Assembly (NCBI GenBank): GCA_019747895.1
Contig: JAIEQF010000021.1
Coordinates: 1,207-65,206, forward strand
From: Chthoniobacterales bacterium
GTDB taxonomy: Bacteria > Verrucomicrobiota > Verrucomicrobiia > Chthoniobacterales > UBA6821
Length of the DNA stretch: 64,000 bases
Reading direction: 5' to 3'
This document shows positions 1-26,147 of the stretch, in pieces. How positions within the stretch are numbered: position 1 is the first letter of the stretch; each line of letters opens with the position of its first letter. The notes beneath the pieces are model-generated. The model did not search any database. It saw nothing but the letters and a program-made list of their open reading frames with translations, and was not told the origin of the DNA. Both the position numbers and the translations under genes were made by a program.

Positions 1-227
1 CGCCGACGAATTTCTGTCAGACGACGAAAAAGACCGCGATACGTATCTTCCACCAGCAAATAAGAAACTCCTTTTGGAATTGAATACGCACACTCTCGTC
101 GCAAAGAAACAATGGTCACCTCATCACCCTGCGCTACTATTGCCTCGGCCAGCGTTAAAACAACGCGCTCTGCACCGCCTCCAGCAAGTCCATCGATAAT
201 AAAAAGAACGCTTTTAGAATTCCTCAT
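1..227 (-). CDS. glycosyltransferase (GT4-like), 5' part only; gene runs off the window start
   Basis: Not in ORF track (no stop in window). My translation of the minus strand from ATG 227-225 gives MRNSKSVLFIIDGLAGGGAERVVLTLAEAIVAQGDEVTIVSLRRE..., open to nt 1. A GGAER-type N-terminus is typical of GT-B/GT4 enzymes. ATGA start/stop overlap with 224-1279. Confidence 0.55.
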   Translation of the reverse strand, partial: MRNSKSVLFIIDGLAGGGAERVVLTLAEAIVAQGDEVTIVSLRRECAYSIPKGVSYLLVEDTYRGLFRRLTEIRR

Positions 228-1279
228 GAATGAAGCAATTCTTCGACCGCAGCAATCACCGGAGCAACAGGAATATTTTTTAAATAACGTTCTCGCGTTC
301 CGGTGTTCACGGCATCCGGATCAAGCAAGCTTCCATAATCGCGCGCATCAATCAACCGATATCGCGTCTGCCAAGGATGCCATTCTTTAATTTTCGTAGG
401 ACCAAAAAGAGCGACCGTATCTTTTTTCAACGCTGCAGCCATGTGCATGGGGACAGAATCAACGCCCAGAAAAAGGCGTGATCCTTCAATCAAGGCTGCA
501 AGCTGCCCCAGCGTCAATTGCCCAGCTAACGAAATGATGTTGGGACCCGTAACTTTTTTTAAAATCGCATCGACCAATGCCACCTCTTCTTTTTCTGGTG
601 AAGAAGTGAGGATGACGGGCCACCCTTGGCGAGCAAAATGTTGAATCACTTCCGCAAAGCGATTGTCTTCCCAGCATTTAAAAACCCATCGCGCTGCAGG
701 GTGGACCACGAGATAAGGTTTTTCAATCTGATGATGTTGCAAATATTTTTGCAACACACAGCGATCTTCGTCAACAATCTCCAAGCGACAGCAAGCTTGT
801 TTTCCAACAAGATCAATTCCTAACGGCCCTAACAATGCTAGATTTTGCTCCACCGTATGATGCGTATTGCTGGCAAAGAGCGACACCAAATAAGTAAAGC
901 AAGAGCGCCAAAAAATATCTCGCCGACGCGGATAATCGATGCCGATAGACCCTTGTCGTGCGAGAAGCTTTGCCATCAAGGCACCTTGCATCTGATCGGA
1001 AAGATGCAGCACCCAATCATACTTCTGCTTCCGTAATTGAAAAAAAACTCGCAGATGATTCCAGGGGCTCCTCCATCCTCGCAGATCTCGATTCCAACAC
1101 CAGATATGACGGAAGTCGGGATCATTTTTAACAAGCGGCTCGGTCCCCTCGTAGACCAAAAGATCAATCTGAGACGTTGGAAACTTTTCCTTTAACGCAC
1201 GTGCTACCGGCGTCGTTAAAAGAACATCACCATGATGACGTAGTTTAATAAGGAGAATGTTCAATCTATTAGAATGCAC
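224..1279 (-). CDS. LPS heptosyltransferase (glycosyltransferase family 9)
   Basis: 351-aa ORF. N-terminal ILLIKLRHHGDVLLTTP and C-terminal GVDSVPMHMAAAL match the GT9 heptosyltransferase motifs (RxxxxGD ... GxDSxxMHxAAA). Lies in an LPS-core gene cluster. Confidence 0.8.
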   Translation of the reverse strand: MHSNRLNILLIKLRHHGDVLLTTPVARALKEKFPTSQIDLLVYEGTEPLVKNDPDFRHIWCWNRDLRGWRSPWNHLRVFFQLRKQKYDWVLHLSDQMQGALMAKLLARQGSIGIDYPRRRDIFWRSCFTYLVSLFASNTHHTVEQNLALLGPLGIDLVGKQACCRLEIVDEDRCVLQKYLQHHQIEKPYLVVHPAARWVFKCWEDNRFAEVIQHFARQGWPVILTSSPEKEEVALVDAILKKVTGPNIISLAGQLTLGQLAALIEGSRLFLGVDSVPMHMAAALKKDTVALFGPTKIKEWHPWQTRYRLIDARDYGSLLDPDAVNTGTRERYLKNIPVAPVIAAVEELLHS

Positions 1280-3097: not shown

Positions 3098-3104
3098 AAA
3101 AAAA

Positions 3105-3288
3105 AATTAACCACAAAGAACACAAGACAAAGAAGAGAATTAACCGCAAAGAACGCAAAGAACGCAAAGAAAAAATTGCAGTGATTTACTTTTCCAAATT
3201 CACAAAGTTGGGTTATCACGCAAATAAAGACAAAATGCCACTAGCGAAGCTTCATCTTTCAACTTTTTTGCGTTCTTTGCGGTTAATT
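3105..3288. repeat. split-arm inverted repeat, (A/G)CAAAGAAC 9-10-mer family, long form
   Basis: Left arm 3105-3171 aattaaccacaaagaacacaag...aattaaccgcaaagaacgcaaagaacgcaaagaa; right arm 3268-3288 ttgcgttctttgcggttaatt. The spacer is similar, in reverse orientation, to the spacer of 59195-59374. Confidence 0.85.
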
Positions 3289-3302
3289 TTTCCCCTTTCT
3301 TT

Positions 3303-5839: not shown

Positions 5840-6604
5840 CTACCGCGCTTTTGGCAGGGAGGGAATCAAAAATTCCAAGCTCCCCGAAGCAACCCATCCT
5901 TCCTGCCCAGTAGCCGTGCGCACGTAGGACCAAACGCCATGCTGCGAGAGCAAGATGAGGCAGCTCCCTGTCGGAAGTTGAGCAAGCACCGAAGAGGCAT
6001 CAGCTGGCGTAGCACGAAGAGGTGTTGTCGCAGGACGATCTGGTTGATGTTCTAGTGCCGCTTTAGCATCGGGTTTTGGAAGCAACACAACCTCATAGCG
6101 AGCGTGCAGACGCGGGTCAATGATCACACCCAATACCGAAATAGCATGTCCCACGAGACAAAGAAACACGACCAAGAAAAAAAGGCGCCATCGCTTAGGC
6201 TTCTTTGTTGATGGAAGAATTTGCAGGAAAAAAATAACGATAAGAATTGCCGTTGCGCTCCATCCGATCACAGTTCCAACAAAAGTTATTTTTTCAGGCG
6301 CGTAGCGTGATGCTAGCTTTTGCTGCCAAGAAGACTCCATGGGCAACTCCATTTTTGACAACACTTCTTGCAGCTCTTGTTGGGCTACAGCAAGAGTCGG
6401 ATCAAGCACCAGAGCCCGCCGCAGAGCTAACGAAGCAGCTGGCAAATCTCCTGCATCTTTTTCAGCGAGCGCTTCGTTGTAGTATTCCTCGGGAGAGGCA
6501 GTCTTACTCTTCTGTGATACACTCATTGCGGCAAGAGGCACTCCCAACAATAGGAAAAAAATAATGAGTAATGAGTAACGGGTAATGGGTAGCTGTCGCT
6601 TCAT
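5840..6604 (-). CDS. BatE-like TPR / transmembrane / SH3b protein
   Basis: 254-aa ORF. Last gene of the Bat operon. Contains a TPR-like segment (YYNEALAEKDAGDLPAASLALRRALVLDP), two TM helices and a C-terminal SH3b-like segment (GSCLILLSQHGVWSYVRTATGQEGWV). Confidence 0.55.
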   Translation of the reverse strand: MKRQLPITRYSLLIIFFLLLGVPLAAMSVSQKSKTASPEEYYNEALAEKDAGDLPAASLALRRALVLDPTLAVAQQELQEVLSKMELPMESSWQQKLASRYAPEKITFVGTVIGWSATAILIVIFFLQILPSTKKPKRWRLFFLVVFLCLVGHAISVLGVIIDPRLHARYEVVLLPKPDAKAALEHQPDRPATTPLRATPADASSVLAQLPTGSCLILLSQHGVWSYVRTATGQEGWVASGSLEFLIPSLPKAR

Positions 6605-6711: not shown

Positions 6712-8475
6712 GACTTTTTTCAATTGCTTTATCAATCGTTCTTTTTCAGGAGCAGTCAAAAAGGTCATGCGTGCGCCATAGTGAATTTCATCTCGCCGTC
6801 TTAAAATTTCTTCGAGATCAGCAACGTCAGCCACTCCTTGCTTCAGAAATAACTCCGCAGCAGTTGCTGCTTTGTCATAAAATTCAGCAATGGAAAGCTC
6901 TTCTTTCTCAAGCTCTGCAATCAACTCTTCAAGGCGCTGCCGCTCTTGATCAAGGGGCGATCGTGCTCGCTGACTATAAGCTCTGACTGCAAAGATGCCG
7001 ATGAGCACCACAGAACCAAAGAAAAATGCCAACCAGGTCAGCACCCATTCTTTTTGATGGAGCGGATCTTTCCAGGAACGCTCCGTTTTTTGGTTTAAAC
7101 GCTCTCCGGCAACTAGCTTTGGAGCAGCAGGAGAAGGAGAGGCTGTTGCGCCTCCAGCAGCTGAAGGAGCTCCTGCTGTTGGAGTGGGAGCAGGCGTGGC
7201 GTTGCTGATTTCAAGTGGAAGTGGCTTCGTCTTTAGCGTGACATATTTTGTGGCAATAGGATCGAAATAAGAAAAAGAAGAACCTGGCGTCGCTGTCACC
7301 GCCTGCTGCGCAATCATGGTCGTATCAAAAGTCTTCACCCCCCTCCATCCAAAAACATCTGTTGCTTCAAAATGATCAGCTGGAGGATAAGTGCGCCATC
7401 CTTGTGTTTCTGTCAACTGGGGTCCTTTCAAGGCTTGAAAATTTCCTTGCCCAGAAAGTTTTAAAGAAAGCGTTACTGGATCTCCTTGATCTACTTTTTG
7501 CGGAGCAACAGATCCCTCTAAACGAAATTGACCAATCGCACCTGAGAAGTCTGCTGGACGACCTTCTGAAGGCAGAGGCATGACCTCACAATGTGTTGCA
7601 CTTGTTTTGAGCGTCATCTTATGTTGTCGAACCAAAGGAGACCTTCCTCCCATGAGTCGTGAAAAAAGATCGGGATCGATCCCGACTGGCGTTGGCTCTG
7701 GAATGGCAACAGCAATATCCAATGTCGCTGGCGGAATATCCAAGACTCCCGTCTTCACAGCAGCAAAGAGAGTGCGAAAGGTGGCCACGGTATAGATTAA
7801 ATTGTTTCGATTTTCACGACTCTGCTCCGGATCTTTGAAACGATCGGTCAAGACCCCCTCTCCCCCAAAGTTAGGTGGCCCCATGGTAGAAAATCCGTAA
7901 TGAGCATCGACGTAAAATCGAATTTCTACCGGCACGACTTCTCCGACATAAAATTTCTTTTTAGGAATTACGACTTCTGCAAAACCGAGACGACCTGGAT
8001 CAACGTTGTTGCTAGGTTGGTTCGCAAGCCTCGATGGCAAGGTAGCAGAACCAGGATTCATTGGAGACACCTGTTGCGAAGGAGCATTTGGAGAGGCTGA
8101 CCCTGAACCTATTACCGCCAATTGCAATGGCGTTGTTTTCATCATTCGCCCTTCAGCTCGCACGGTGACAGGAGGAACGGTGAGGTTTCCCGTTTTTAAA
8201 GGAACCACAATGTAAGAATAGATCACCGAAGAAGAGACTTGAAAATTAATCATCTGAACCTGAGATGATTGCCCTGTGAGCTTGATTTGGAGACCCTCTG
8301 CAGCAATCTCAGGAGGAACATCTGCTTGTTCTGCACCCGTCACTTTGACATCAAGCTGCACGACCTCTCCCGCAGCCACACGATTGCGCGATAACGTCGC
8401 CGTTGCATTGACCGAGGGGGAAGATGCAAAACAGATATTGCTGAATAAAAGTAAAATGAATAACGAGTATTTCAC
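6697..8475 (-). CDS. batD: BatD-like oxygen-tolerance protein
   Basis: 592-aa ORF with signal peptide, long beta-rich ectodomain, a late TM helix (WVLTWLAFFFGSVVLIGIFAV) and a cytoplasmic tail. It occupies the position after the batA/batB-type VWA genes. Confidence 0.7.
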   Translation of the reverse strand: MKYSLFILLLFSNICFASSPSVNATATLSRNRVAAGEVVQLDVKVTGAEQADVPPEIAAEGLQIKLTGQSSQVQMINFQVSSSVIYSYIVVPLKTGNLTVPPVTVRAEGRMMKTTPLQLAVIGSGSASPNAPSQQVSPMNPGSATLPSRLANQPSNNVDPGRLGFAEVVIPKKKFYVGEVVPVEIRFYVDAHYGFSTMGPPNFGGEGVLTDRFKDPEQSRENRNNLIYTVATFRTLFAAVKTGVLDIPPATLDIAVAIPEPTPVGIDPDLFSRLMGGRSPLVRQHKMTLKTSATHCEVMPLPSEGRPADFSGAIGQFRLEGSVAPQKVDQGDPVTLSLKLSGQGNFQALKGPQLTETQGWRTYPPADHFEATDVFGWRGVKTFDTTMIAQQAVTATPGSSFSYFDPIATKYVTLKTKPLPLEISNATPAPTPTAGAPSAAGGATASPSPAAPKLVAGERLNQKTERSWKDPLHQKEWVLTWLAFFFGSVVLIGIFAVRAYSQRARSPLDQERQRLEELIAELEKEELSIAEFYDKAATAAELFLKQGVADVADLEEILRRRDEIHYGARMTFLTAPEKERLIKQLKKVMGNE

Positions 8476-10867: not shown

Positions 10868-10880
10868 TTTTTAATTTCTT

Positions 10881-10915
10881 TTCTTTGCGTTCTTTGTGTT
10901 CTTTGTGGCCATTAA
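10881..10915. repeat. solo arm, (A/G)CAAAGAAC family
   Basis: ttctttgcgttctttgtgttctttgtggccattaa between the batA stop (10920) and the batB start (10867). No complementary partner nearby. Confidence 0.8.
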
Positions 10916-10919
10916 ATTC

Positions 10920-12454: not shown

Positions 12455-12488
12455 TTCTTTGTGTTCTTTGCGTTCTTTGTGGTTAATT
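12455..12488. repeat. solo arm, (A/G)CAAAGAAC family
   Basis: ttctttgtgttctttgcgttctttgtggttaatt directly abutting the DUF4381-like start codon (12454). Same orientation as the 10881 arm. Confidence 0.8.
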
Positions 12489-12498
12489 TTCTTTTTCC

Positions 12499-13390: not shown

Positions 13391-13555
13391 GAATAGCCAC
13401 AAAAGAACACAAAGAGCACAAAAAAAAGACAAAAATTTAATAGATGTTTCTTTTTGAAAAAGAAAAATTTATTTCATCAGAACGCCACTTCTAATTATAC
13501 CTTCTTTGTGTTCTTTTGTGGCTATTCTCTTTTTTTCTGTGTTCTTTGTGGTTAA
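13391..13555. repeat. split-arm inverted repeat, (A/G)CAAAGAAC family
   Basis: Left arm gaatagccacaaaagaacacaaagagcacaaa (13391-13421); right arm tctttgtgttcttttgtggctattc (13503-13527) plus an extra tctgtgttctttgtggttaa (13536-13555). Lies between the moxR stop and the DUF58 start. Confidence 0.85.
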
Positions 13556-13570
13556 ATTTTTTCTTTCTAC

Positions 13571-14560: not shown

Positions 14561-14563
14561 AAA

Positions 14564-14592
14564 GTTGAAGTTGAAGGGTTGAAATATTGAAG
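14564..14592. repeat. solo arm, GTTGAAG heptamer family
   Basis: gttgaagttgaagggttgaaatattgaag starting 4 nt upstream of the moxR start codon (minus strand). Confidence 0.7.
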
Positions 14593-14769
14593 CTTTTAAA
14601 AATGATCCTAACTAAAAAATACACATCTCTTTCATTTTGCAAAAAGAAATTTTATGTGGTTCCGGAAAAATTAACTTTTAAAAACGAATATTCATTTTTA
14701 TTTGATGCCTGATCCAACCACAGATAAGTACACTTTATTTCTCCTGTTCACTAAGTTTTTATCAAGCGT

Positions 14770-15963
14770 TCAAGGCAATGGCTCTGACAGCAGGTTCATC
14801 CTAGCTAAATATTCCTTTGCCTGCTGCAGCAATTCCTCGCGATGTTCTCCCGTGAACGTGATGTGCCCCATTTTGCGGCCAGGCTTCGCCTCTTTTTTCC
14901 CATAAAGATGCAAGCTGATCTCTGGATGTCCTAGAAACGGCTTCCAATCTGGTTCGCCAGCCTGCCAAAGATCACCTAAAAGATTGAGCATAATGGCAGG
15001 CTTGACTAATTCAGTAGAACCGAAGGGCACTCCGGTCAGCGCACGTACGCTTTGTTCAAACTGACTCGTCTTAGATGACTCGATTGTGTGATGCCCTGAA
15101 TTGTGAGGTCGCGGCGCCAGTTCATTGACAATGATCTCGTCATTCGAAAGCACAAAAAATTCAATCGTGATCAAGCCCACAACATCGAGAGCCTCTGCTA
15201 TTTTTTGAGCTAAGGAGATCGCTTGCTCCAAAACTTTTTTAGAAAAACGAGCAGGCGCTCTTGAAACATCAAGGATTCCTTTCACATGACTATTTTCTTG
15301 CGGAGGGAAAGAGCTGATCTCTCCGCTCGTCGACCTTGCCACAATCACAGAGCCTTCTGCGCAAAAATTGATTCGCTTCTCCAAAACAGCGCGCTTGGCA
15401 CGCAAGTCCGCCCACGCTTGTTGCAGCTCTGCTGCAGAGGCATTTGCTGCGATGGAGACCTGCCCCTTGCCATCGTATCCCAGCGTTGCTGTTTTCAAAA
15501 TGGCATCGCTTTTTAATTCGCTCACTGCTGCAACAAGTTCTTCAACAGAGGTGATCACTCGAAATGGAGCCACAGGAAATCCACTTTTTTGCAAAAATTC
15601 TTTTTCAAAAATGCGATCTTGGCAAATGCGAACCACCTGTGGAGAGGGATACAGCGGCCGCAATGTGGACAGCAATTCGAGAGAGGCGGCAGGAATATTT
15701 TCAAACTCCAACGTGATGAGATCAACACGACTTGCAAAATCTCTCAATGCCTTTTCGTCCTCAAACGAAGCCACGATCATTTCATCACCCACCGAAGCAG
15801 CTGGACCTCCTGGAAGAACATCGTACACCAGCACGCGATGCCCCATTTTTTTCGCAGCCATCGCCATCATTTGCCCGAGCTGGCCACTGCCAAGGAGGCC
15901 TAAGGTCAGGTTACAGGTTGCAGGTTGCAGGTTATCAGGTTGTTTGTTTTTACTGGCTCTCAT
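14770..15963 (-). CDS. purK: N5-carboxyaminoimidazole ribonucleotide synthase (ATP-grasp)
   Basis: 397-aa ORF. LGLLGSGQLGQMMAMAAKKMG N-terminal Rossmann segment and an ATP-grasp core. The first ~20 codons (..QPDNLQPATCNLT) are heptamer-arm sequence, so the true start is uncertain. Confidence 0.85.
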   Translation of the reverse strand: MRASKNKQPDNLQPATCNLTLGLLGSGQLGQMMAMAAKKMGHRVLVYDVLPGGPAASVGDEMIVASFEDEKALRDFASRVDLITLEFENIPAASLELLSTLRPLYPSPQVVRICQDRIFEKEFLQKSGFPVAPFRVITSVEELVAAVSELKSDAILKTATLGYDGKGQVSIAANASAAELQQAWADLRAKRAVLEKRINFCAEGSVIVARSTSGEISSFPPQENSHVKGILDVSRAPARFSKKVLEQAISLAQKIAEALDVVGLITIEFFVLSNDEIIVNELAPRPHNSGHHTIESSKTSQFEQSVRALTGVPFGSTELVKPAIMLNLLGDLWQAGEPDWKPFLGHPEISLHLYGKKEAKPGRKMGHITFTGEHREELLQQAKEYLARMNLLSEPLP

Positions 15964-16090
15964 GAAATGCTAAGACAATTACTTTTCTCAATTTTCAAAA
16001 ATAACATCACCACCTTAACAAACAATGATTCTCAAAAAAAATGAATAATGCTTTTTACCTGCAACCTGTAACCTGTAACCTGTAACCTGC
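15905..16090. repeat. split-arm inverted repeat, CCTGTAA/CCTGCAA family, shared by the divergent purK and lpxL-waaF genes
   Basis: Left arm 15905-15940 gtcaggttacaggttgcaggttgcaggttatcaggttg (inside the purK 5' end). Right arm 16058-16090 cctgcaacctgtaacctgtaacctgtaacctgc, ending 3 nt before ATG 16094. Confidence 0.9.
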
Positions 16091-16093
16091 TTT

Positions 16094-17749
16094 ATGTCCC
16101 GCCTCATCTATTTCATTGCACTTTTCGTAGTCACCATTATTCGAAACCTTCCACTGCGTTGCTGCTTCCGGTGTGGACAGGCATTGGGATGGATCGCATG
16201 GCTGATACTGCCTCAATATCGTCGCTTGGCCCAACGAAACTTGCAGATTGCTTTTGGAACAGAAGTCTCTTCCTCTCAACTTCATCGCTGGACTCGTCAA
16301 AGCTTGATGATGTTGGGCGCCAACATCCTCTCCTCTTTAAAAATGCCTGCGATGCAGATCGAGGAAATTCAGAAGACCTTCACGATCGAAGGAGAAGAAT
16401 ATTGGGAAAAATTTATTGCCCGCAATGATCATGGCGGCACCGTAGCTGCGCTAAACCATTTTGGAAATTGGGAACTCAATGCTCAAGCGGTTGTCTGTCT
16501 CAAAATGCGCGCTGCGGGAACCGTCTATCAACCTCTTCGCAATCGCTTCATTGATGATTTAATTAATCGTGACAGGAGAAGTCGTGGCGTTGCTACTTTT
16601 GATCGACGAAAAGATTTATCAGCAGCAGCTTCTTTGCTGCGACAGGGAGGATTGCTTGGCATCTTGACCGATCAACATGCCGGCGACGCTGGCATCTGGG
16701 TTCCTTTTTTTAACAAACTCGCTTCTACATCACCTCTCGCTGCAACCTTGGCTCAAAAAACAGGCGCTGCACTCATCCCCATCACGATCCGCACTGTTGG
16801 AGTAGCTCGCTGGGTCATCAAGATTCACCCTCCCATCGCAACTCAAGATAGAGCGATTAGACCTCTTTCGAAACTCGCTGCTGGCGATAACCGAGCCTCT
16901 TGGGAAGAGGCGAGATGCCTCTCGTCAGAGAGCCCAAAGGGCGAGCAGTCGGGAAGACTGCGAGGCCAAGAGCAAGGAGAGGAGGCGCACAGACGAGGAG
17001 TGTATAAGGACATACTCGACGAGACGAGCACCGATGCGACACAGCTATTCGCGTCAGCAGTAGAGTCTCCAAAGAGGTCCATCGGTGCGATCACCTACGA
17101 CTTGGGCGAAGCCTTAGCTCAAGAAATTCGCCGCTCGCCCACCGATTGGTTTTGGGTTCATAATCGTTGGAAACTTCCTAAGCCTGCATTTTTATTGAGT
17201 CGCACTCGCCGCGGATTTTTTCTGCCAGAAGCAACACCGCAATTCGCGGCAACAGTAGAGTTTCGAAAGAAGTTACAACCGCTGAAACTTCTCGTTCGTT
17301 CCCCCAACTGGCTTGGAGACGCTTGCATGGCGCTCCCCGCCATTCGTTCTCTCAAAGCAGGTCGTCCCGATCTTCATCTCACGATCTTGACGCCAGCTAA
17401 GCTCGCTGATCTTTGGAAGGTTGTTTCAGAAATTGATGACATCATCATCATTCCTCCCAAAGCCGCTCCGTGGGAGGTTGCAAAGCTCTTGCGGCAGCGT
17501 ACCAATTCGAATTTGGTACCTCCGTTTGCTGCGGCACTCCTCTTGCCGAATTCCGTCCGCTCTGCACTGGAAGTTTGGCTAGCCAAGATTCCACGCCGCA
17601 TTGGCCGTGTTGGAAAAAAAGGAAAGTTGCGTTCTTGGCTGATCAACCAACCCTTCCCTGATGACATCGAAAAACTAAACCACGAACGAGATCAATACTT
17701 CGCCGTGGCCCGCTGGCTGGGAGCGCCGGAAACAGACTGTAGGCTGTAG
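16094..17749 (+). CDS. fusion: lipid A secondary (lauroyl/myristoyl-type) acyltransferase + N-terminal domain of ADP-heptose:LPS heptosyltransferase
   Basis: 551-aa ORF. The N-half has the LpxL/HtrB HX4E motif (ALNHFGNWELN) and the WFWVHNRWK end. It continues without a stop into LLVRSPNWLGDACMALPAIRSL...LLPNSVRSAL (GT9 N-domain). It carries an in-frame palindromic insert at about 16855-17083 and ends at a TAG inside a repeat arm. Confidence 0.7.
   Translation: MSRLIYFIALFVVTIIRNLPLRCCFRCGQALGWIAWLILPQYRRLAQRNLQIAFGTEVSSSQLHRWTRQSLMMLGANILSSLKMPAMQIEEIQKTFTIEGEEYWEKFIARNDHGGTVAALNHFGNWELNAQAVVCLKMRAAGTVYQPLRNRFIDDLINRDRRSRGVATFDRRKDLSAAASLLRQGGLLGILTDQHAGDAGIWVPFFNKLASTSPLAATLAQKTGAALIPITIRTVGVARWVIKIHPPIATQDRAIRPLSKLAAGDNRASWEEARCLSSESPKGEQSGRLRGQEQGEEAHRRGVYKDILDETSTDATQLFASAVESPKRSIGAITYDLGEALAQEIRRSPTDWFWVHNRWKLPKPAFLLSRTRRGFFLPEATPQFAATVEFRKKLQPLKLLVRSPNWLGDACMALPAIRSLKAGRPDLHLTILTPAKLADLWKVVSEIDDIIIIPPKAAPWEVAKLLRQRTNSNLVPPFAAALLLPNSVRSALEVWLAKIPRRIGRVGKKGKLRSWLINQPFPDDIEKLNHERDQYFAVARWLGAPETDCRL
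16855..17083. mobile_element. in-frame palindromic element (RPE-like), copy in lpxL moiety
   Basis: The termini gattagacctctttcgaaactcgctgctggcgataac and ctattcgcgtcagcagtagagtctccaaagaggtccatc are reverse complements of each other with few mismatches. Central gagtgtataaggacatactcgac. Translated without a stop as ...LSKLAAGDN...LFASAVES... Boundaries +/- a few nt. Confidence 0.75.
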
Positions 17750-17873
17750 GCCAGAAGCAAAATTTTCTCACTATACTTTTTTACAAAGAACAGTTCTTCA
17801 TAAAACGAAACGAGAAATGAAATTTAATCATCAATCACAACCCCTACAGCCCACAGCCTATAGCCTACAGCCT
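17737..17873. repeat. split-arm inverted repeat, GCCTACA/GCCTATA family, inserted inside waaF
   Basis: Left arm 17737-17752 ctgtaggctgtaggcc (supplies the TAG stop of 16094-17749). Right arm 17843-17873 cctacagcccacagcctatagcctacagcct (translated in 17817-18392). The spacer supplies the ATG at 17817. Confidence 0.9.
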
Positions 17874-18392
17874 GAGTCTAGCGGCCTGCTTGCAGCTGCT
17901 AGACAACGCATTGCCATCGCTCCCGGCGCCGAGTACGGCCCTGCTAAACGTTGGCCGACCGATCGTTTTCGTAACGTGATGGATCAGCTCTCTACCAAGC
18001 ATGAGATTGACTGGATCTTAGTTGGAACAGCCGCGGAACGTCCCATTGCAAAAGAAATTTTAACTCCTATTTTTTATGGTCATGTTGAAAACAAAGTCGG
18101 AGAAACCTCGCTAGCTGAGCTCATCCAACTTTTGCAAACCTGCGACCTTCTCCTCACCAATGACACAGGGACGATGCACTTGGCAGATGTCTTAGAAATT
18201 CCCACCGTTGCTATCTTCGGTTCAACAGACCCAACCCTCACTGGCCCGCAAGGTCCTCACCATCGCATTCTGCAACACCCTGTTTCGTGCAGCCCTTGTT
18301 TTTTGCGCAAGTGCCCGATTGATTTTCGCTGCATGCTCGGAGTCACTCCAGAAGAGGTTGCGACGGCGATTGAGGAACAACTCGAATTATAG
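17817..18392 (+). CDS. waaF: C-terminal domain of ADP-heptose:LPS heptosyltransferase (split from 16094-17749)
   Basis: 191-aa ORF. IAIAPGAEYGPAKRWP and TNDTGTMHLA match the GT9 C-domain motifs (PGAxxGxxKRWP, xNDSGxMHxA). The first 20 codons (MKFNHQSQPLQPTAYSLQPE) come from the repeat spacer and arm. Confidence 0.7.
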   Translation: MKFNHQSQPLQPTAYSLQPESSGLLAAARQRIAIAPGAEYGPAKRWPTDRFRNVMDQLSTKHEIDWILVGTAAERPIAKEILTPIFYGHVENKVGETSLAELIQLLQTCDLLLTNDTGTMHLADVLEIPTVAIFGSTDPTLTGPQGPHHRILQHPVSCSPCFLRKCPIDFRCMLGVTPEEVATAIEEQLEL

Positions 18393-18730: not shown

Positions 18731-19864
18731 ATGAACCATTCTCCGCATCAGCATAACGTCGAGCAAGAACAACATTTTATTGTGGCTCTGGTTGAGGAAC
18801 TCCTCGCACGAGCGATTCAGTTAGGTGCTAGCGACATTCATTTAGAGCCACTCTCAACGCGCCTCCGTGTTCGCTTCCGTTGCGATGGAATTTTGAGAGA
18901 GGTCCAATCACTCCCGCAACAGTGGCAGGCGGCCCTCCTCAGTCGACTCAAAATCATGACGCAGTCGATGAACATTGCTGAGAAGCGCCTTCCGCAAGAA
19001 GGTCGCTTTGAATTAGAAAAAGAAGGGCTCGAAGTTCGCGTCGCGACGATGCCGACCTCGCATGGTGAAAGCATGACGCTGCGCCTTTTAAATCCAGCCG
19101 CTTTTTCACAAGGATTCACAGAATTAGGTTTGGATTCCAATGATCTAAAAATCTTAGAGCAACTCCTTCAGCGACCTGATGGATTAATCTTAGTCACTGG
19201 CCCCACTGGCTCTGGAAAAACAACGACACTCTACACCTGCCTCCAGAGGCTTGCCTCACAGGGAGCCAAGGTAATGACGATCGAAGATCCTGTTGAATAC
19301 CGCATCCCAGGCGTCAATCAAGTTCAAGTCCATGAAGAGATTGGATTGACTTTTTCTCAAGCGCTTCGCTCTTTGCTGCGACAAGCGACCAACAAAATTA
19401 TGGTCGGAGAAATTCGTGATGCCACCACGCTAGAAAGCGTCTTGCACGCCTCGCTGACGGGGCATCTCGTTTTTTCCACTCTTCACACTCACGACACTCC
19501 GAGCGCCGTCGTCCGACTTAAAAACATGGGAGCATCCTCTTCTTCATTGGCCACCAGCCTCCGCGCCATCATCGCACAACGTCTCGTGAGGCGATGTTGT
19601 GAAATTTGCAAAAAAACAAATTCATCTAAGTCTATCGGCTGCCCTCACTGTAACGGCACTGGCTTCCGCGGTCGTGTTGGCATTTTTGAAATCTTAGTGC
19701 TGGATGAATCACTGCGTCATCATCTTCATCACGCTACCTCGTTGGAAGAGTGGACTCACCTCGCGCGACACCGCTGCACGAAGAGCCTTCGCGAAGATGG
19801 CCTCATGAAAGTTGAAGCCGGGCTGACAACGATAGAGGAAATTTTCAAAGCCACACCCGCATGA
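18731..19864 (+). CDS. GspE/PilB-family secretion ATPase (short form, no N-terminal domain)
   Basis: 377-aa ORF. Walker A GPTGSGKTTT, Asp box, His box TGHLVFSTLHT, C-terminal CxxC...CxxC. ATGA overlap with the next gene. Confidence 0.8.
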   Translation: MNHSPHQHNVEQEQHFIVALVEELLARAIQLGASDIHLEPLSTRLRVRFRCDGILREVQSLPQQWQAALLSRLKIMTQSMNIAEKRLPQEGRFELEKEGLEVRVATMPTSHGESMTLRLLNPAAFSQGFTELGLDSNDLKILEQLLQRPDGLILVTGPTGSGKTTTLYTCLQRLASQGAKVMTIEDPVEYRIPGVNQVQVHEEIGLTFSQALRSLLRQATNKIMVGEIRDATTLESVLHASLTGHLVFSTLHTHDTPSAVVRLKNMGASSSSLATSLRAIIAQRLVRRCCEICKKTNSSKSIGCPHCNGTGFRGRVGIFEILVLDESLRHHLHHATSLEEWTHLARHRCTKSLREDGLMKVEAGLTTIEEIFKATPA

Positions 19865-22246: not shown

Positions 22247-22258
22247 AAATCTTGCTAG

Positions 22259-22342
22259 TGTTGAAGCGTTGAGAGCTTGAAACGTTGAAGAGCCGGTAAC
22301 TTTGTCTCTTGTAACTATTTCAACGCTTCAACGTTTCAACCT
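22259..22342. repeat. split-arm inverted repeat, GTTGAAG(C) family, short spacer
   Basis: gtgttgaagcgttgagagcttgaaacgttgaag ... ttcaacgcttcaacgtttcaacc, with a spacer of about 28 nt. Confidence 0.85.
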
Positions 22343-22468
22343 TGTTCGTAGTAATAAACAATGTTCTTGTTTCAAATAGAGCGGTTGCCTTGGCCTGCAA
22401 TGATCTTCAAATACTCCCCCGTTCCGATTTGACACACCTTGACATGCTCGTGTATCTTGCTTGGTCCT

Positions 22469-26032: not shown

Positions 26033-26042
26033 AGAAAGAGTT

Positions 26043-26142
26043 AATAGCCACAAAAGAACACAAAGAGCACAAAAAATAGGCATGCAAAAATTGAAAGCTC
26101 TTTAATTCTTCTTTGTGTTCCTTGTGTTCTTTTGTGGCTATT
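26043..26142. mobile_element. ~100-bp MITE-like element of the (A/G)CAAAGAAC family, copy A (between convergent gyrB and nadB)
   Basis: aatagccacaaaagaacacaaagagcacaaaaaataggcatgcaaaaattgaaagctctttaattcttctttgtgttccttgtgttcttttgtggctatt. Nearly identical to 41514-41615, including the spacer. Confidence 0.8.
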
Positions 26143-26147
26143 CTCTT

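Follow-up and report, generated by a model that had tools for sequence, protein, structure and literature searches.

A fused lpxL-waaF gene broken at a heptamer-armed cassette in a Chthoniobacterales bacterium, and its probable function as two polypeptides

The lpxL-waaF locus

The 64,000-nucleotide stretch of contig JAIEQF010000021.1 analysed here (hereafter the window) comes from a metagenome-assembled genome (MAG) of a Chthoniobacterales (Verrucomicrobiota) bacterium of soil or freshwater. Within it, a gene that joins an LpxL-type lipid A acyltransferase to a heptosyltransferase II (HepII, or WaaF) of glycosyltransferase family 9 (GT9) is present as two open reading frames (ORFs), the N ORF and the C ORF, that meet at a cassette of ~140 nt composed of a left arm of tandem heptamers, an A+T-rich spacer, and a complementary right arm. 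The features of the locus, in window coordinates, are:

16094..17749, plus strand: N ORF, 551 aa, LpxL-type lipid A acyltransferase fused to a GT9 N-terminal domain (MBX9577813.1, K2W97_04990)
17285..17722, plus strand: GT9 N-domain, TIGR02195 positions 1-138, last helix ...ERDQYFAVARWLG
17734..17751, plus strand: left arm, AGACTGTAGGCTGTAGGC, two heptamer units, holding the N ORF stop at 17747-17749
17752..17842, plus strand: spacer, 70% A+T, with a palindrome at 17779-17805 (TTTTACAAAGAAC/GTTCTTCATAAAA) and an ATG at 17817-17819
17843..17873, plus strand: right arm, CCTACAG CCCACAG CCTATAG CCTACAG CCT, four units, complementary to the left arm
17817..18392, plus strand: C ORF, 191 aa (MBX9577814.1, 'glycosyltransferase family 9 protein')

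Pfam and NCBIfam profile searches place the LpxL domain (PF03279) at aa 4-253 of the N ORF and the acceptor-binding GT9 N-terminal Rossmann domain at aa ~398-543, with aa 398-539 matching TIGR02195 positions 1-138. The N ORF ends ...APETDCRL-TAG (...AVARWLGAPETDCRL-TAG), its stop codon sitting in the second of the two heptamer units of the left arm. The C ORF opens at ATG 17817, preceded by gaaacgagaa, in a frame that differs from that of the N ORF (frame 0 versus frame 2), and its translation reads MKFNHQSQPLQPTAYSLQPE...IAIAPGAEYGPAKRWP...TNDTGTMHLA. Residues 1-29 are a leader coded by spacer and arm, in which the right arm is translated as PLQPTAYSLQP, and residues 30-189 constitute a complete ADP-heptose-binding GT9 C-terminal domain that matches PF01075 (9e-31) and TIGR02195 positions 170-336. 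The original prediction, made from the letters of the window, had placed the N ORF stop inside the left arm and the new start in an AT-rich spacer, and had the right arm translated into the GT9 C-domain in another frame; each of these statements was borne out. Both ORFs are annotated as proteins at NCBI. Against the TIGR02195 equivalog cut-off of 134.6 bits, the halves score 61.9 and 121 bits, such that only their sum passes.

The catalytic and ligand-binding residues of HepII are retained across the break, as NWLGD in the N ORF and as PGAEYGPAKRWP and TNDTGTMHLA in the C ORF. NWLGD aligns with SWVGD of the Escherichia coli enzyme, and hence with the catalytic Asp13 of the xWxGD motif, and the donor-side motifs PGAxxGPAKRWP and TNDxGxMH are invariant among 22 C-half proteins. 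Both halves align along the length of E. coli WaaF/RfaF (1PSW; TIGR02195) with E = 4e-31, and share with it the catalytic Asp of NWLGD, PGAE.GPAKRWP and TNDxGxMH; the E. coli protein, however, is a single chain of 348 aa, whereas here LpxL carries the N-domain and the linker is where the chain is interrupted.

The arm motif of the cassette occurs in the window far more often than chance would allow, a 16-mer version matching 13 times where 0.16 matches are expected. Complementarity between the arms is 79-88%, with 88% for the inverted pair 17734-17750 / 17843-17859, and pairing reaches to ~17883, although the left arm has just two units compared to four in the right arm. The predicted RNA fold of the cassette has an energy of -42.7 kcal/mol (z = -5.3). 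An Rfam search with the cassette returned sub-threshold microRNA and small nucleolar RNA noise alone, and an intron or ribozyme identity was ruled out because no such match was among the results. Since a Shine-Dalgarno (SD)-like 4-mer is found at -20 to -4 in 2 of 50 predicted gene starts of the window, the upstream regions of which are 64% A+T, the absence of an SD sequence before ATG 17817 is normal for this DNA, and suggests that initiation is SD-independent across the genome.

The LpxL domain of the N ORF also contains an in-frame insert of ~225 nt (75 aa; 16854..17078, plus strand) that is absent from the closest relative; it is context only, and forms no part of the split. Inserts of this family, ~100-225 nt long with inverted ends (AGACCTCTTTC...GGGAAGAGGTCT), encode ...LSKLA...DVLEDASTxAT... 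and occur inside the LpxL domain and a GspE/MshE-like ATPase gene. Their positions differ between the window (16854-17078) and L004 (4925-5022 and 8165-8309), two strains that are ~95% identical, in a manner that resembles the Rickettsia palindromic elements.

Position of the break in the enzyme

When the two ORFs are aligned with E. coli HepII (1PSW), the last residues of the N ORF fall close to residue 155, and the conserved segment of the C ORF resumes at residue 182, with RIAIAPGAEYG corresponding to residues 182-192 and RIAIAPGAEYGPAKRWP to residues 182-198. The C-domain of HepII spans residues 182-348 (bioRxiv 10.1101/2022.06.13.495986). Single-chain AlphaFold models were made of a fused relative, protein P0004, and of the C ORF. 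The P0004 model (mean predicted local distance difference test score, pLDDT, 88.8; predicted template modelling score 0.89) has its last N-domain helix at 448-458, a coil at 459-483 whose stretch 468-474 has pLDDT values under 50, and, at 484, the strand that opens the C-domain. The C ORF model (mean pLDDT 81.7) is disordered over residues 1-29, and past these shows a Rossmann domain that is complete, plus a C-terminal helix. Because of this alignment and these two models, the break is predicted to fall in a disordered inter-domain linker, in agreement with the original prediction, and the peptide coded by spacer and arm is modelled as a floppy N-terminal tail.

The same cassette in other assemblies

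A protein of 192 aa that starts MNFNHQSHLQPTAYSLQPESS... and is 87% identical to the C ORF (P0122) was found on six contigs from six European Nucleotide Archive (ENA) assemblies (loci L172-L177). Five of the six contigs extend upstream of the C ORF and carry the N ORF, the sixth (L176) starting inside the spacer; in L172-L174 the N ORF is complete, at 468 aa, and the distance from its stop to the start of the C ORF is 95 nt. The spacers are 87-90% identical to that of the window, the start ATG is conserved, and the palindrome AAGAAC.GTTCTT is invariant. The left arm of L172 has four units rather than the two of the window, a difference of 14 nt, and a 14-nt duplication lies just upstream of the start ATG. 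The DNA of the cassette was thus read in two distinct versions, that of the window and the L172 type; a further protein (P0123; 81% identity) has a related leader, MKLNPQARPLQPPASSLQPESS, and in its case the cassette is judged from the leader peptide.

The split is real, the same cassette being found in a diverged lineage, across six independent assemblies. An artefact of assembly or binning can be dismissed for practical purposes as the source of the interruption, a read or assembly error having been named as a possible refutation by the original prediction: although the window allele itself is known from one MAG contig alone and the region contains short repeats, the homologous cassette lies at the same site in the six assemblies and, by its leader, in P0123, and the arms, at 15-31 nt, fall short of the usual k-mer lengths of assemblers.

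Comparison of the window with L172, both of them split, points to purifying selection on both halves. The C-half has a ratio of nonsynonymous to synonymous divergence (dN/dS) of 0.18 (~31 nonsynonymous and ~42 synonymous differences, dS 0.41), and the N part one of 0.13 (dS 0.42). The spacer has diverged by ~10-13%, versus 32% at synonymous sites. No frameshift or stop was found in the halves of the six assemblies.

Fused and split alleles among relatives

Fusion of LpxL to GT9 is the rule in Verrucomicrobiota, and the GT9 portion is unbroken in 79 of 79 evaluable loci from GTDB genomes and in 72 of 72 loci from Joint Genome Institute (JGI) metagenomes, none of these being from close strains of the window. 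The alignment with relatives that the original prediction had proposed shows waaF uninterrupted in these loci and in L004, and interrupted in L172-L177, in L001 and in L005-L009. In L001 (P0005) the halves overlap by ATGA at the same linker. A monophyletic clade of seven lineages is likewise split at this linker, and where its DNA was read (L005-L009) the halves either overlap by 4 nt or lie 18, 22 or 146 nt apart; every N piece of the split genes ends just after the ...WLG helix. Since the C-halves of the clade have dN/dS values of 0.11-0.21 at dS 0.74-1.9, the split state has been maintained for a long time under constraint. A neighbour-joining tree of the N parts implies at least three origins of the split, namely the cassette allele, P0005, and the seven-lineage clade, to which P0021 may add a fourth, and gene order and adjacency of the halves are conserved in every split lineage. 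Four more distant GT9 proteins of 166-178 aa (P0183, P0229, P0141 and P0142), the first two on contigs of about 60 kb, consist of the C-half only and start just before ...IGLCPGAEYG, and may represent additional, independent breaks at this linker.

The nearest relative of the window, L004 (dS 0.10), is fused. Where the window has its left arm, four GTTACAG units stand in frame in L004 (PETGYRLQVAGYR) and lead into coding linker, and L170 and L171 have four units and one unit, respectively; an in-frame heptamer array at the site of the break in fused relatives refines the original prediction. Origin of the stop by a single point mutation in a GTTACAG array was considered and ruled out, as the units differ at several positions. 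The C-half of P0241 is at least 90% identical to that of the window and is attached to a third, fused linker allele, and P0243, a member of the P0122 cluster, has a different split junction. Thus, fused and split alleles alternate among close strains, and covalent continuity of the linker appears, from these comparisons, to be dispensable. Synonymous divergence groups the window with L004 and L172 with L171; the cassette allele, however, is in the window and L172. Because of this conflict, either the linker allele has been moved by recombination or both forms are old polymorphisms.

Comparison with two-polypeptide glycosyltransferases

Division of a GT-B enzyme between two polypeptides has precedent in Alg14/Alg13 of eukaryotes and EpsE/EpsF of bacteria and archaea, in which separate N- and C-half proteins share one active site, and in which fused and split forms interconvert in evolution (PMC8993221). 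As in those systems, a membrane-associated acceptor half and a nucleotide-sugar half are here encoded by separate adjacent genes. Alg14/Alg13 and EpsE/EpsF are, however, related to GT1 and GT28 rather than to GT9, and their split is ancient and fixed, whereas fused and split alleles here alternate among close strains and the N half is in addition fused to LpxL. The Pfam and NCBIfam matches of the two halves are to GT9 heptosyltransferases, and the Alg13, Alg14, EpsE, EpsF and MurG families are absent from them; the resemblance is therefore best taken as one of analogy, not membership.

A proposed two-polypeptide heptosyltransferase and its alternatives

Whether waaF is a pseudogene or is made as separate halves that reassemble had been left as an either-or by the original prediction. 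The second option is favoured, because the allele is present in other lineages, because both halves appear to be under purifying selection, and because independent splits at the same linker have been long-lived. We put at roughly 72% the probability that this bifunctional lpxL-waaF gene, of HepII type, is naturally split and yet works as two polypeptides, analogous to Alg14/Alg13. The first polypeptide would comprise LpxL and the GT9 N-terminal acceptor-binding Rossmann domain, and the second, of 191 aa, the whole ADP-heptose-binding C-terminal Rossmann domain, with the left arm giving the TAG stop, the spacer giving the ATG, and the right arm being translated into the floppy tail. The LpxL-tethered N-domain and the free C-domain would then join non-covalently to rebuild the GT-B cleft. 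Translation of the C ORF could proceed by re-initiation on a read-through operon mRNA, the terminating ribosome opening the arm hairpin, or, equally possibly, on message started at a weak promoter within the spacer, and an SD sequence should not be needed for either route in this genome.

Several points weigh against the two-polypeptide reading. Its support comes from sequence comparison and predicted structures. The search for GT9 genes covered the 64-kb window, so a second HepII gene could lie elsewhere. With the closest relative, L004, being fused, the lineage of the window may have gained the split allele recently, and the dN/dS measured against L172 is in part the product of evolution in other backgrounds. 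A scan of the spacer for sigma-70 promoters and terminators found nothing good, the best candidate found by hand being weak (TTTACA-15 nt-TAAAAC in the window, GTTACA-15-TAAAAT in L172), and we know of no demonstration of non-covalent reassembly of a GT9 enzyme.

The strongest competitor, though an unlikely one, is that waaF is a recent pseudogene, killed by the cassette or by a stop arising in a pre-existing linker array, with a C ORF that has not yet decayed. The fused state of L004 at dS 0.10, the lack of an SD sequence or clear promoter before ATG 17817, and the failure of either half alone to reach the TIGR02195 cut-off are all in keeping with such an event. A dead gene, however, would not be expected to persist as the same split allele at dS 0.41 with dN/dS of 0.18 and 0.13 and a conserved ATG, free of frameshifts and stops across six assemblies, and the C-half is strongly constrained in other split lineages as well; absence of an SD sequence is, moreover, the norm in this genome. 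The downstream-acting gene of the pathway is also intact:

224..1279, minus strand: HepIII-type GT9 gene, intact, TIGR02201 (453 bits versus a cut-off of 170), the only other GT9 gene in the window

The TIGR02201 family is placed in the same lipopolysaccharide (LPS)-core heptose pathway. Adjoining this gene is a PfkB-family sugar kinase gene (1269-2183), the product of which is weakly similar to the heptose-7-phosphate kinase domain of RfaE.

Less probable again is that the two halves have become functionally uncoupled, the free C-domain working with another partner or as an ADP-heptose-binding protein and the LpxL-linked N-domain being vestigial. The halves are indeed separate ORFs, and fission can precede neofunctionalisation, but the analysis turned up no direct sign of uncoupling, and a vestigial N-domain sits poorly with constraint that is similar and strong on both halves, with the retention of acceptor-side NWLGD along with the donor-side motifs, and with the conserved order and adjacency of the genes in every split lineage.

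Production of a single polypeptide by recoding, through ribosomal bypass over the hairpin-enclosed spacer, frameshifting, or excision at the RNA level, is very improbable. The strong arm stem (z = -5.3 and -6.0) does contain the stop and brings it near the downstream coding sequence. The last sense codon of the N ORF is CTG, however, and the lone CTG of the right arm that matches it (17871-17873) is out of the frame of the C ORF, such that a bypass of the T4 gene 60 type was ruled out, a take-off CTG being without an in-frame landing CTG. Nor is there an intron or ribozyme match in Rfam, and other split lineages have plain ATGA overlaps or short gaps without arms, so that joining would be unnecessary.

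Heptamer cassettes elsewhere in the window and in relatives

Tandem heptamers are a general feature of this DNA, the window having 15 period-7 arrays as compared to 0-6 for periods 5, 6, 8 and 9. All 16 heptamer arrays lie within ~100 nt of a gene end, although deep coding sequence makes up 82% of the window, and 14 of the 16 are stop-free on one strand. The units are GGCTGTA/GGCTATA, GGCTGAA, GGTTACA/GGTTGCA and GAGTAAC. Because 7 mod 3 is 1, three such units put a stop in every frame. In the window and four relatives, 13 paired cassettes were found, with arms 90-162 nt apart and spacers of 60-76% A+T, and in 10 of them (units GGCTGTA, GGCTGAA and GAGTAAC) the arms carry stops that face inward on both sides, with few or none facing outward. 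Since most arms have this polarity, a cassette of this kind can, to judge from its sequence, close one ORF and let another open. Arrays of the GGTTACA type behave differently: read as CCTGYAA, seven of eight lie 4-43 nt upstream of an annotated start, and the eighth, the purK-side arm, is just inside the longest purK ORF.

The clearest neighbouring examples, together with the genes in the window that have no plausible start outside a cassette spacer, are:

15907..16089, no strand assigned: heptamer-arm cassette between purK and the N ORF, GGTTRCA / CCTGYAA arms, 123-nt spacer, 72% A+T
14770-15963, minus strand: PurK gene, leader MRASKNKQPDNLQPATCNLT-LGLLGSGQ
34514-35176, minus strand: thiE-like gene, leader MKNFLQPSAFSLQP-LYGILD
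5840-6604, minus strand: signal-peptide-like gene, leader MKRQLPITRYSLLIIFF

The right arm of the purK cassette ends 4 nt before ATG 16094, the start of the N ORF. The purK-lpxL intergenic region has three unrelated spacer alleles (window 15907-16089, L004 3852-3996 and L172 4276-4494), each with its own arm type (GGTTRCA, GGCTGAA and GGCTGTA, respectively), and the alleles are not distributed as strain relatedness would predict; in L001 the spacer is of the L004 type and lacks arms. In L004, a GAGTAAC-arm cassette of ~180 nt (7368-7551) lies between two ATPase genes of the type II secretion system (T2SS) or type IV pilus, which overlap by ATGA in the window (19861-19864) and in L170, L171 and L172. 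Like the waaF cassette, it has a stop in its left arm and an in-frame ATG in its spacer that reads through the right arm. Genes whose reading frames apparently open inside a spacer and run out across an arm thus include purK (window and L004) and the MshE-like gene of L004, and the thiE-like gene (MKNFLQPSAFSLQP...) and a secreted-protein gene (MKRQLPITRYSLLII...) likewise appear to do so.

The original prediction had described the element as a portable stop and re-start cassette. The many junctions at which such cassettes lie, their inward stops, and the variation of whole cassettes at the same site from strain to strain fit this description, whereas the spacer is single-copy: no second copy of the 94-nt waaF spacer was found in the window, in 177 loci or in plasmids (~64 kb of this genome being searched), and every spacer matches only its orthologous site in relatives in the sequence searched. 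A simple miniature inverted-repeat transposable element (MITE) model was ruled out on the grounds that no further spacer copies were found. Cassettes are present, absent or replaced between strains, and the joins look like replacements, with no clean target-site duplication seen. Portability is, on this comparative evidence, supported only in part and suggestive, and homologous recombination at the locus may be how the split allele itself spread. That the heptamer-arm cassettes are modular 'gene punctuation' elements of ~140-190 nt, with inward-facing stops in their arms and an initiation site in their A+T-rich core, dropped between or inside genes so as to split fused or overlapping coding sequences, and forming a distinct Chthoniobacterales class, is a more speculative and, on balance, doubtful proposal.

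Heptamer direct repeats of the unit TAACTGA are known from Beggiatoaceae, some Cyanobacteria and Bacteroidetes, where they lie upstream of starts lacking an SD sequence, stop all three frames in forward orientation, are translatable in reverse, and differ between strains by 7-nt indels (PMC4679880). The repeats described here are similar in being tandem intergenic 7-nt units, mostly a few nt upstream of SD-less starts, that change in 7-nt steps between strains. They differ in their units (GGCTGTA, GGCTGAA, GGTTACA and GAGTAAC) and in that many are paired in inverted orientation, 90-162 nt apart, with A+T-rich sequence as the spacer between them; for the Beggiatoa repeats, one inverted case alone was reported (PMC4679880). 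The cyanobacterial short tandemly repeated repetitive (STRR) sequences are also 7-bp, hairpin-forming and intercistronic, as in hupS-hupL, and their function is unknown (PMC2670836); their units and phylum differ from those here, and they are not known to split coding sequence or to give both stop and start. In the literature searched, no report of such heptamer repeats was found for Verrucomicrobiota.

MITEs, REP/REPIN sequences and the Rickettsia palindromic elements are small, have inverted-repeat ends, vary between strains, and are found intergenically or in-frame within genes, and the members of each family share a conserved core in many copies. Compared with these families as generally described, only the arm motif recurs here and every spacer is locus-specific. 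From the TAACTGA and STRR repeats, those described here differ in units, phylum, paired-arm layout and gene-splitting role.

Other repeats and side observations

A third arm type, of GTTGAAG / CGTTGAA units, occurs in the window (14561-14600 and 22250-22350) and in L006 (4440-4560), where GTTGAAG-type arms flank the 146-nt gap that splits waaF. A second abundant class of intergenic repeat has inverted arms of GAACGCAAA / GAACACAAA units (for example ATAGCCACAAAAGAACACAAAGAGCACAAA ... TTTGTGTTCTTTTGTGGCTAT), at the following window positions:

3098-3302: second repeat class
10868-10919: second repeat class
12455-12498: second repeat class
13420-13570: second repeat class
26033-26147: second repeat class
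41503-41600: second repeat class
43609-43700: second repeat class
59189-59266: second repeat class

A long palindrome (GGGGTCAGTCCTGCCTTTTGTAACATTT ... AAATGTTACAAAAGGCAGGACTGACCCC) is present in two copies, 42087-42221 and 62014-62096, immediately downstream of genes. Between the C-half of waaF and the T2SS ATPase gene, the window has a 252-nt insert relative to L004 (18419-18670), the right end of which (GAATCTCTTCTC) repeats the left flank (GAGAAGATTC) in inverted form, a hint that arms may arise by copying of the opposite flank. The 5' ends of three paralogous genes, at 22439, 53818 and 56874, are near-identical (TTGACAGGATC.AGTAGATTGTTTGGTCCTATGAAGCCAAAGAAG), and the sequence upstream of them is conserved as well (...GGTGCCA.(A/T)(G/T)CATTA...).

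Implications

The finding is a variant on two themes that are both already known, GT-B enzymes made as two polypeptides and intergenic heptamer repeats. If the two-polypeptide reading is correct, it would be the first known natural evidence that a GT9 heptosyltransferase can do without a covalent connection between its two Rossmann domains, and would extend the Alg14/Alg13 principle to synthesis of the LPS core. GT-B enzymes are antibiotic targets, and the existence of fused and split alleles in close strains amounts to a natural experiment on GT-B domain closure. The locus would also represent gene fission seen in progress, with the causal sequence still present.

More broadly, heptamer arms bracket intergenic regions, at an abundance hitherto undescribed, in a lineage of Verrucomicrobiota without Shine-Dalgarno sequences, in parallel with the unexplained heptamers of Beggiatoa and the cyanobacteria. 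Should the punctuation proposal hold, such units would be a natural means by which genes are split at their domain linkers, and a single mechanism would account for the waaF linker, the T2SS-ATPase junction of L004 and the purK leader.

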